Source of the DNA: a virus
Lineage: Duplodnaviria; Heunggongvirae; Uroviricota; Caudoviricetes
Strand: one strand, 5' to 3'
Length of the DNA: 12,643 nucleotides
IMG/VR virus record: IMGVR_UViG_2778261064_000023
Part shown: piece after piece, positions 9,483 through 10,288 of the stretch
Layout of the letters: each line of letters opens with the position of its first letter
Position numbering within the stretch: the first letter of the stretch is position 1
Position numbers and translations under genes: made by a program
Notes under the pieces: generated by a model
The model's database searches: none
What the model saw: only the letters and a program-made list of their open reading frames with translations
What the model was told of the DNA's origin: nothing

Positions 9483-10067
9483 TCACTCACCTTTCTGTTG
9501 CCGTAATTTCTCCGGCACGTTTCCGGTTGTTTCCATCAGGTAGTCTTTCAGAATGCGGGGCAGATTATCGGCAGTTTTGGCGCACGCATTACAGGCCCGT
9601 GCTGTTTCCTTCCTCAGCCCATCGAGCATTGCCGGAGTCATCCCGGGGAACTGCCTTTGCATTGTGAGCGGTAAACTATCCATGATCGAAGAAATCTGAC
9701 TCGCCAGTCCACGAAGCGCATAGAGCACGAACTCAGTATCTGTAACCTCCCCCGTCTCTCTGGCGTTCTTCAGTTCCTGCCCGTCAGCCTGTGCTTTGGT
9801 GAGACGGTAGCGTTCGTACTCTGTTGTGCCTGGCTGTAAATCTGATTCACCAGCAGCACGTAAATCATCAAGCTCCCTGCGGAGTTTTTCGTTTTCGATG
9901 TCCTTCTCCCTTTGTGCATACCATTCGATCACCTGTGCAGAGTCGAAAGTCACTTCCACGCCTTTTCCGCCACCAGATGTATGAGGAAGGCCCAGCGTCT
10001 GCCAGCGTTCAATTGTGCGCGGATCAACGCCGAAAATCTCCGCCAGTCTCTTTTTGTTAACATTCAT
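9483..10067 (-). CDS. terS: Terminase small subunit, lambda Nu1-like
   Basis: 194-aa product [70 protein letters not shown]... is collinear with lambda Nu1 as recalled ([70 protein letters not shown]). Confidence 0.85.
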
Positions 10068-10093
10068 CTATCAAATCCTCATCAAAAACCACC

Positions 10094-10288
10094 TCCGACA
10101 TGAAACGCCAGAAAAACGGGATTTTCCGGTGTTATGGTGTCGTATGTTTATGATAGTTAATTTAAATAAAAACATAATGTTACATGCAAGAAGTACCGAC
10201 ATGCTTTTTCCCTGAAAAATTTTCATAAATAGTGAAAATCTGCGCGTCTGCCGCCCCGTGGTGTTAATGGTTCCGGAAAGGACCCGTG
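10094..10288 (-). other. cos site 3 (minus orientation), immediately upstream of the Nu1-like terS: cosQ, cosN and cosB with two direct CATGTCGG repeats
   Basis: Minus strand reads CACGGGTCCTTTCCGG (plus 10273-10288), then GGGCGGCAGACG (plus 10245-10256), then CGCAGATTTTCACTATTTATGAAAATTTTTC, close to lambda cosQ-cosN-cosB as recalled; CCGACATG at plus 10096-10103 and 10196-10203. Confidence 0.65.

Follow-up and report, generated by a model that had tools for sequence, protein, structure and literature searches.

The DNA examined here, the 12,643-nt IMG/VR record IMGVR_UViG_2778261064_000023 (referred to below, at its full length, as the window), carries on its minus strand a gene for a small terminase subunit (TerS) of the lambda Nu1 family, at positions 9483–10067, without a large terminase gene (terL) beside it. 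Comparative analysis indicates that this arrangement is best explained if the gene belongs to a phage-inducible chromosomal island (PICI), located between cspD and clpS of Escherichia coli, and supplies the small terminase of its packaging module. The terS gene itself is ordinary for a PICI, and the noteworthy part is its setting, a cassette that is bounded by cos sites and can be inverted and exchanged.

As judged from its domain matches, 9483–10067(−) is a real, intact, and full-length member of the Nu1 family. The open reading frame (ORF) starts with ATG and encodes 194 residues, which match model positions 1–162 of 164 in Pfam Phage_Nu1 (PF07471; E = 8e-68, 227.6 bits against a curated cut-off of 30 bits) and PHROG 57, “terminase small subunit” (E = 2.5e-63). 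In comparisons with known structures, the N-terminal winged helix-turn-helix (HTH) is readily recognized, with residues 1–98 matching the lambda TerS structure 6HN7_B (1.5e-38) and residues 1–67 matching the gpNu1 DNA-binding domain 1J9I (5e-23). The closest classical relative is gp1 of phage 21, with 62% identity at the protein level, ~74% at the DNA level, and a common recognition helix, DPRTIERWQ. The protein can be described as a phage-21-type winged-HTH N-terminus joined to an island-specific C-terminal half with a 12-residue extension. An earlier reading made from the letters of the window alone (the sequence-only reading) had described a full-length lambda-Nu1-like TerS on the minus strand and no terL in the window. 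Both points hold, since the Pfam model is covered almost completely and no ORF in the window is long enough for a gpA-type TerL (~640 residues), only the integrase and the DUF927 protein exceeding 240 residues.

Directly upstream of terS lies its cognate cosB. The region 10295–10058 on the minus strand is collinear with the annotated cos of phage 21 (178 of 246 positions identical), and this alignment places all subsites of the complete cosQ-cosN-cosB that the sequence-only reading had numbered site 3 (cos3; Table 1). Its R3, integration host factor (IHF) site, R2, and R1 follow in the same order as in phage 21, and CATGTCGG boxes occur at 10196–10203 and 10095–10102. The cos site 2 that was said to lie beyond terS is likewise a real and complete plus-strand site. 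It faces the 3′ end of terS, has no cognate terS after it, and resembles the cos sites of prophage SerU-LTIIb (75% identity) and Gifsy-1; its R core, TCAGATCC, was found three times against 0.23 expected.

Two more cos sites are situated outside this pair. One of these, cos1, precedes a second small terminase gene of the DUF1441 family, while the other, cos4, was absent from the list of the sequence-only reading and turned up in a scan for the cosQ word CGGGTCCTY (four found in the window against 0.13 expected). The cosQ-cosN core of cos4 is an inverted copy of the cos1 core (8066–8118/11179–11231, 53 nt, 94%). The cosB-like segment of cos4 (CATGGCGGCGGCAGCATG) is unlike that of cos1, and no phage counterpart was found for it. 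The island holds no cognate TerS for either cos2 or cos4. Together, the four sites represent four cosB types and are arranged as two nested convergent pairs, cos1(+)/cos4(−) and cos2(+)/cos3(−).

These convergent pairs coincide with the breakpoints seen in related islands. The edges of the inner cassette are imperfect inverted repeats of cosQ-cosN-I2 (9262–9341/10207–10286, 80 nt, 75%), and an independent repeat search returned the same two inverted repeats, namely this one and that of the cos1 and cos4 cores. When the window is aligned with related island L014, positions 9262–10286 are inverted (91% over 1025 bp) and both flanks are collinear. Against L017, the inverted segment is 9499–11253 (88% over 1767 bp), again with collinear flanks and with cos4 as the right boundary. 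In a third island, A36, the outer segment is inverted and the inner segment has been inverted back. Whole cassettes are also replaced. For example, L021, an island with a backbone like that of EcCICFT073, has 94% identity with EcCICFT073 on both sides of the module, as far as the plus-strand cos core on one side and from the minus-strand core onward on the other, and between the cores it has cosB-terS-cosB in place of cosB-rppA-cosB. The published cos1 and cos2 of EcCICFT073 are themselves a convergent pair around rppA. By these alignments, both the inversions and the cassette swaps between islands are bounded exactly by the inverted cos cores.

The layout of the module was tabulated for the window and 11 related islands. 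A 21-like cos precedes the terS position in the window and in all 11 (in PSS-15/L002, the ORF is deleted), and the 3′ end of terS is accompanied by an oppositely oriented GATCC-type cos in the window and in 10 of the 11, L017 being without it. In eight of the ten terS-bearing relatives, terS is co-directional with int (L014, L017, L028, L030, L031, L033, L034, and L035); it is inverted in the other two (A36 and L032), and the window is a third inverted case. The minus-strand position of terS here is accounted for by the location of the module between inverted cos cores, with the inner cassette flipped relative to most relatives. To judge from these layouts, a second cos and an opposite-strand gene instead of terL are the normal architecture of the module, seen in its flipped state. 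Some of the compared islands differ in other genes as well: L014 has a K88-type fimbrial subunit gene (8644–9435) in place of the DUF1441 terS, and in L017, Abi_2 and SocA/Panacea-type defense genes (11751–13974) replace the PerC2 arm.

It is conceivable, although quite improbable, that the cos cores delimit a packaging-specificity cassette that satellites flip or trade among themselves, perhaps through the action of the helper terminase. Cleavage at two inverted cosN sites would release a fragment with identical 12-nt overhangs, and this fragment could be religated either way or swapped between co-replicating islands. If so, terminase-driven shuffling would let PICIs quickly re-assort cosB, TerS, and Rpp specificities against helper lineages, and the island-specific C-domain of TerS would be a generalist adaptor for diverse helper large terminases.

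The surroundings of the module are those of a satellite. Several complete E. coli genomes, of which many are from Shiga toxin-producing E. coli (STEC), have a chromosomal segment with 99.8% identity to the window. In one such genome (NZ_CP076274.1), the element is found between cspD/yljB and clpS. Its genes are ordered int, an HTH (AlpA-type) regulator, Icd-like, DUF4222, a DUF927 primase/replicase, single-stranded DNA-binding protein (SSB), ProQ, PerC, and DUF1441, followed by terS (−), small ORFs, a second PerC gene, 1.4 kb of non-coding DNA, and clpS. No large terminase is annotated there from cspD to clpS. A 24-nt direct repeat, GGTGTAGTnAATGGTGTAGTTAAT, occurs exactly twice, just left of int (L001 11157) and just left of clpS (L001 25106), and this single pair of attachment (att) repeats encloses an island of ~14 kb with terS inside it. 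The clpS gene is reached 1.4 kb past the end of the window, and no phage genes intervene. Approximately 12 copies of GGGACAAC or GTYGTCCCA, in both orientations, directly follow the DUF927 gene, and this iteron cluster (6090–6371) is most likely the replication origin of the island. The AlpA position holds an annotated HTH regulator, and Phage_AlpA was found in related islands. Neither the island annotation nor Pfam scans of the main ORFs gave structural, lysis, or large-terminase genes. The packaging determinants, that is, two terS genes and four cos sites, are located near the right end, at 8047–11251.

By its gene content, the element is a Gram-negative-type PICI, with an integrase and att repeats, a regulator, a primase and origin, a length of ~14 kb, and a packaging module (defining features in PMC6092414 and PMC10085698). 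No virion-derived sequence of the island was found in the phage collection. The proposal that the orphan TerS sits within a satellite is borne out by the att pair that brackets the island, the PICI gene set, and the lack of structural and lysis genes. Inspection of the flanking genome for terL and att repeats, suggested in the sequence-only reading, gave the same picture: no terL or head genes, and one att pair around terS.

Table 1. Features of the window, with the basis of each assignment or its component sites. Positions on the minus strand are given in the direction of that strand where subsites are listed.
Feature	Position	Strand	Basis or components
terS, Nu1 family, island type, 194 residues	9483–10067	−	Pfam and PHROG matches, likeness to phage 21 gp1, C-domain comparison
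cos3, phage-21 type, cognate to terS	10089–10285	−	Collinear alignment with annotated phage 21 cos; cosQ 10285–10279; cosN 10256–10245 (GGGCGGCAGACG); I2 10229–10214; R3 10206–10191; IHF site I1 10182–10170; R2 10148–10133; R1 10105–10089; then terS ATG at 10067
cos2, SerU-LTIIb/Gifsy-1 type, complete	9263–9456	+	75% identity to SerU-LTIIb cos; cosQ 9263; cosN 9292–9303; I2 9319–9334; R3 9342–9357; R2 9400–9414; R1 9441–9456
Inner cassette	9262–10286		Inverted repeats and island alignments; cos2 core, cosB(GATCC), terS, cosB(21), cos3 core
cos1, mEp460/PhiR40_1 type, upstream of DUF1441 terS	8047–8132	+	Resembles cos before PhiR40_1 terS; cosQ 8047; cosN 8076–8087; cosB-like CATCCGTCATCATCATC 8112–8132
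cos4, fourth cos-like site	11164–11251	−	cosQ-word scan and inverted repeat; cosQ 11251–11239; cosN 11221–11210
DUF1441-family small terminase, mEp460/PhiR40_1 phage type	8268–8777	+	Pfam DUF1441 (4.7e-35); PHROG 141 (2.2e-55)
94-residue gene, PHROG 1561	11549–11833	+	Contexts of related islands
Island backbone	1–7937	+	int 1–1239; AlpA-type regulator ~1658–1867; DUF4222 3609–3923; DUF927 primase/replicase 3920–6064; iterons of the likely ori 6090–6371; SSB 6658–7080; ProQ 7117–7653; PerC 7650–7937

The relatives of the island TerS form a lineage of their own. A protein search returned ~40 clusters of 193–194 residues, exclusively from E. coli, with identities of 72–95% to the query; ordinary phage proteins of 181–182 residues rank below them, with identities of at most 71%. 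Six of the variants (P0002, P0008, P0015, P0033, P0034, and P0040) all occur in islands with int, AlpA, DUF4222, primase/helicase, and SSB but without terL, some of which also possess ProQ, PerC, or homologs of capsid protein E and decoration protein D. These islands occupy four insertion sites, namely cspD-clpS, roxA-phoQ, near yejO/narP, and yifB. Six further islands, from IMG/VR provirus calls, have the same layout and no terL. The IMG/VR matches come from proviruses called in isolate genomes rather than from virion DNA, and their contig ends are uninformative on cos cleavage. All 20 contexts examined for the 193–194-residue clade are PICI-type islands, and none of these 20 islands contains a terL. 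The nearest phage-type TerS (P0046, 182 residues, 68% identity) is followed by homologs of gpA, gpW, portal, protease, D, and E in a Stx (Shiga toxin)-type prophage.

What sets the clade apart is its C-terminal half. Among 120 listed hits compared domain by domain, an identity of at least 72% to the query over residues 105–182 was always paired with the 12-residue C-terminal extension, and the best phage-type C-domains reached only 53–55%. At least five recognition helices occur in combination with the island-type C-domain: DPRTIERWQ (21 type), DISTIDRWQ, DVRTITGWQ and DVRTISTWQ (SerU/Gifsy type), and SIRTIQNWQ (lambda type). In the cases checked, the helix and the upstream cosB co-vary. For instance, the 21-type helix occurs with ATGTCGG boxes, and CAGATCC boxes accompany the DVRTIS/T helix in island L023 as well as in phage SerU-LTIIb. 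The ratio of nonsynonymous to synonymous substitution rates (dN/dS) within the clade is 0.08–0.23 in the N-terminal, central, and C-terminal parts alike, and by this measure the clade is shown to be under purifying selection.

As for distribution, 802 of the 5426 complete E. coli genomes have a match to the 3′ half of terS with its extension; in 769 the nucleotide identity is only 60–80%, and in 33 it is 80% or more. The resulting proportion (~15%) is an upper estimate for the island-type gene, as the genomic contexts of the matches were left unchecked. A scan of species-representative genomes gave no close relatives, and in the data reached the lineage seems to be restricted to E. coli. The contexts and alignments thus show a TerS lineage that is island-only wherever it was examined and that has a conserved, island-specific C-terminal half.

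A function in packaging can be proposed, in line with the borrowing of a helper large terminase suggested in the sequence-only reading, and it is given about an even chance of being correct. The island TerS would bind cos3 and bring a helper gpA-type large terminase to cosN, so that the island is packaged in helper capsids. Following induction by a lambdoid helper, the island would replicate, TerS dimers would bind R3, R2, and R1 of cos3, and the C-terminal domain of TerS would recruit the gpA-type large terminase of the helper. The latter would then nick cosN and package island concatemers into helper capsids. In the same scheme, cos1 (mEp460 type, with its own DUF1441 TerS), cos2 (SerU/Gifsy type), and cos4 (a fourth type) would mimic other lambdoid lineages and permit direct packaging by other helpers.

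Recruitment of TerL is supported indirectly by the purifying selection on the clade, by the cognate cosB directly upstream, and by residual C-terminal similarity to phage TerS. The C-terminal end, TAD.LP..L.DY, retains similarity to TerS of the P0046 type, and the C-terminus is the part of lambda Nu1 that binds gpA (reviewed in PMC9026076). A packaging role is also favored by the presence of the terS block in the rppA slot of an EcCICFT073-like backbone, a slot known from experiment to govern packaging specificity (PMC6739421).

A number of observations weigh on the other side. The C-terminal half is close to that of no phage TerS (at most 55%), and it is constant while the DNA-binding domains are swapped, which is not expected if it must match the differing TerL N-termini of helpers. 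A clean one-to-one code between helix and R boxes was considered and abandoned, as P0002 and P0034 differ in helix and have similar boxes. In ~10 of the 25 closest islands (~40%), the terS ORF is deleted with cos2 and cos3 kept, and the copy in A36 is frameshifted. Moreover, terS is antisense to the island operon and is in the minority, inverted orientation here, and a promoter scan for the inverted gene gave chance-level matches only. Finally, a terminator-like hairpin (CCCCGTAATCACGGGG plus a T run) is present on the terS strand at 10775–10760, between cos4 and cos3, so that minus-strand transcripts would end before terS. One of the islands with such a deletion also carries a mobile element: PSS-15 (L002 7934–10236) has the IS21-family insertion sequence ISEc12 between cos1 and the DUF1441 terS, and its Nu1-type terS is deleted while cos2 and cos3 remain.

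Losses of this kind would be natural if terS were a dispensable or decaying passenger and the cos sites were selected, each for direct use by the TerS of a matching helper, as in SaPIbov5-type cos islands, or if the protein were a dominant-negative decoy acting on helper cos, a reading that is doubtful without being far-fetched. It draws on PSS-15 and ~9 other complete genomes in which the ORF is gone and both cos2 and cos3 persist, on the A36 frameshift, and on the inverted orientation without a convincing promoter. Also consistent with it are the 99% conservation of cos2, although neither cos2 nor cos4 has a cognate TerS in the island, and the finding that cos sites alone can confer transfer in EcCICFT073 (PMC6092414). 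A mere passenger would, however, sit poorly with the intact copy in the window, with a dN/dS that stays at 0.08–0.23 even at saturated dS, with a 3′ half that is detectable in so many genomes (mostly at 60–80% identity), and with a cognate pairing of cosB and helix that survives cassette swaps. Fairly unlikely, too, is a mode of action like that of Rpp, in which the island TerS would hetero-oligomerize with helper TerS via a conserved central helix and divert the TerS–TerL complex to cos3. The complex would thereby be pulled off the helper cos, and interference and redirection would be combined in one protein. The location of terS in the rppA slot agrees with this mode, as does the fact that residues 61–104 are the most conserved relative to phage TerS (proportion of nonsynonymous differences, pN, 0.06 to phage 21; 66–100% identity). 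The Rpp-escape mutations of lambda and phi80 TerS, which fall in residues 50–70 (PMC6739421), were counted in its favor, and a C-terminal half that is constant across five types of DNA-binding domain fits a role other than TerL matching. Yet, unlike Rpp, the island protein has kept a full-length C-domain that is 53–55% homologous to the TerL-binding region of phage TerS, and with a DNA-binding domain and cosB that are both phage-like, a mixed dimer would gain no new specificity with a helper of the same type.

The sequence-only reading had itself raised the alternative that terS is the left end of a degraded, adjacent lambdoid prophage that became fused to the island. Beyond the phage-like order of cos and terS and the opposite strand, nothing speaks for such an origin. 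It was rejected on account of the single att pair around terS, the flank up to clpS, 1.4 kb on, without phage genes, and the island-only clade. The same cos-terS-cos cassette is present in islands that have unrelated integrases and occupy four att sites, and in the contexts examined the clade is never beside terL, which makes a prophage remnant vanishingly improbable. Recruitment of a helper large terminase to cos3 by the island TerS remains the preferred, if provisional, reading of the gene.

On the strength of family matches, the island holds two orphan terS genes of two families. The product of 8268–8777, which had been called TerS-like, in fact belongs to a bona fide TerS family: this DUF1441 protein is 64% identical to the TerS of mEp460/PhiR40_1-type lambdoid phages, in which it precedes a gpA-type TerL. 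An assignment of the gene as Rpp-like, and of cos1 and cos4 as Rpp-type sites, was dropped after comparison with the true RppA of CFT073. RppA of EcCICFT073 (c1503, L026 17660–18094) hits 6HLK, the structure of RppC, at 5e-31, and neither of the two window proteins matches 6HLK. The DUF1441 protein, which is not an Rpp homolog, gave no match in the PDB and, in BLASTP against RppA, an E value of only 5.3. The Nu1-type TerS and RppA share only the HTH (E = 2e-4 over 27 residues). Short “phage” records with a DUF1441 TerS were considered as packaged PICIs and proved to be partial genomes of true phages. The last 22 nt of the DUF1441 gene (GTAGTGCAGGAGATTCACCAGG, 8748–8769) recur 376 bp downstream, at 9124–9145, before cos2. 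This repeat may be the scar of a deleted second DUF1441 gene, or it may reflect insertion of the 8780–9120 segment.

To the right of the module lies the 94-residue PHROG 1561 gene, for which Pfam gave no match. It stands after the packaging module in each related island examined, and its counterpart in EcCICFT073 is the 93-residue gene that comes after cos2. Near the right end there is another PerC-family gene (12272–12643, +), which has diverged from the first. Beyond the window, between this gene and attR, GCGGGTTA-type repeats of both orientations form a cluster (L001 24500–24700) that looks like a second iteron or binding-site array. The second PerC gene and second iteron set raised the possibility of a tandem second satellite, which was discarded because there is one att pair and because the same right arm (the second PerC region) is joined to different integrases in other islands.

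Rpp is the only packaging-hijack mechanism of E. coli PICIs that was found to be experimentally tested in the literature searched. A satellite-specific lineage of lambda-type TerS would represent a second, widespread solution in the genomic slot of Rpp, with sequence like the 3′ half of the gene in up to ~15% of the complete E. coli genomes, many of which belong to STEC strains. The island TerS is often combined with several mimic cos sites and, in the present case, with a second TerS family as well. If TerS does recruit helper large terminases, it would decide which lambdoid phages, including Stx phages, mobilize the islands and their cargo, which in related islands includes K88-type fimbrial genes and Abi/Panacea defense genes. 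Inversions and cassette swaps bounded by cos would provide a concrete route by which satellites re-assort helper specificity.

The sequence-only reading had treated an orphan TerS in a satellite as unusual, a view that does not stand, as the small terminase is a PICI core component in SatelliteFinder (PMC10085698) and a terS homolog has already been reported in some Gram-negative PICIs (PMC6092414). In the literature that could be searched, which is incomplete, no paper was found that characterizes a Nu1-type PICI TerS or its island-specific C-domain, that describes two TerS families and four cos types together, or that describes cos cores as boundaries of inversion and exchange.

Several known systems resemble the module in part. 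Like the TerS of Staphylococcus aureus pathogenicity islands (SaPIs; TerS-S, pac-type), the island protein is a satellite small terminase without a large one, is encoded near the right end of an int-regulator-primase island, and presumably redirects the helper large terminase to satellite DNA; it would thus be the cos equivalent of the SaPI TerS strategy. It differs from SaPI TerS in belonging to the lambda Nu1 family and in its association with cos, here a cosQ-cosN-cosB array that includes R boxes and an IHF site, rather than with pac/headful packaging, and no Ppi-like partner is evident for it.

The gene also shares with Rpp/cos1 of EcCICFT073 (PMC6739421, PMC9026076) a position between convergent cos sites and upstream of the 93–94-residue gene, as well as a winged-HTH N-terminus. 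Unlike RppA, the island TerS is 50 residues longer, retains a TerS-like C-terminal domain, and is not an Rpp homolog; its cosB is of the phage type (R3-I1-R2-R1) and not a divergent, Rpp-specific cosB. With regard to EcCICFT073 itself, its cos2 (L026 18150–18339, −) contains three ATGTCCGG-type boxes laid out like the R3, R2, and R1 boxes in the cosB of a phage. According to the original papers on EcCICFT073, no phage cosB is identifiable in either cos site of the island.

Phage 21 (OL657228.1, M81255.1) is the nearest match to the terS–cos3 unit, with 62% protein identity, the same recognition helix, a collinear cos, and ATGTCGG-type R boxes. The island terS, unlike its phage 21 counterpart, has no gp2/TerL gene downstream. 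Its product is only ~36% identical to gp1 over the C-terminal 90 residues and is 12 residues longer, and the cosN overhangs are GGGCGGCAGACG in island cos3 and GGGCGGCGACCT in phage 21. Lastly, islands that copy helper cos sites, such as SaPIbov5 and, with two cos sites each, SaPIbov4 and EcCICFT073, are comparable in that cos2 and cos4 are phage-like cos sites without a cognate terS, and islands with more than a single cos are already on record (PMC6092414). In contrast to SaPIbov4, SaPIbov5, and EcCICFT073, the cos sites of the present island number four, each with its own cosB type, and form two nested convergent pairs whose cores are the breakpoints of inversions and cassette swaps.

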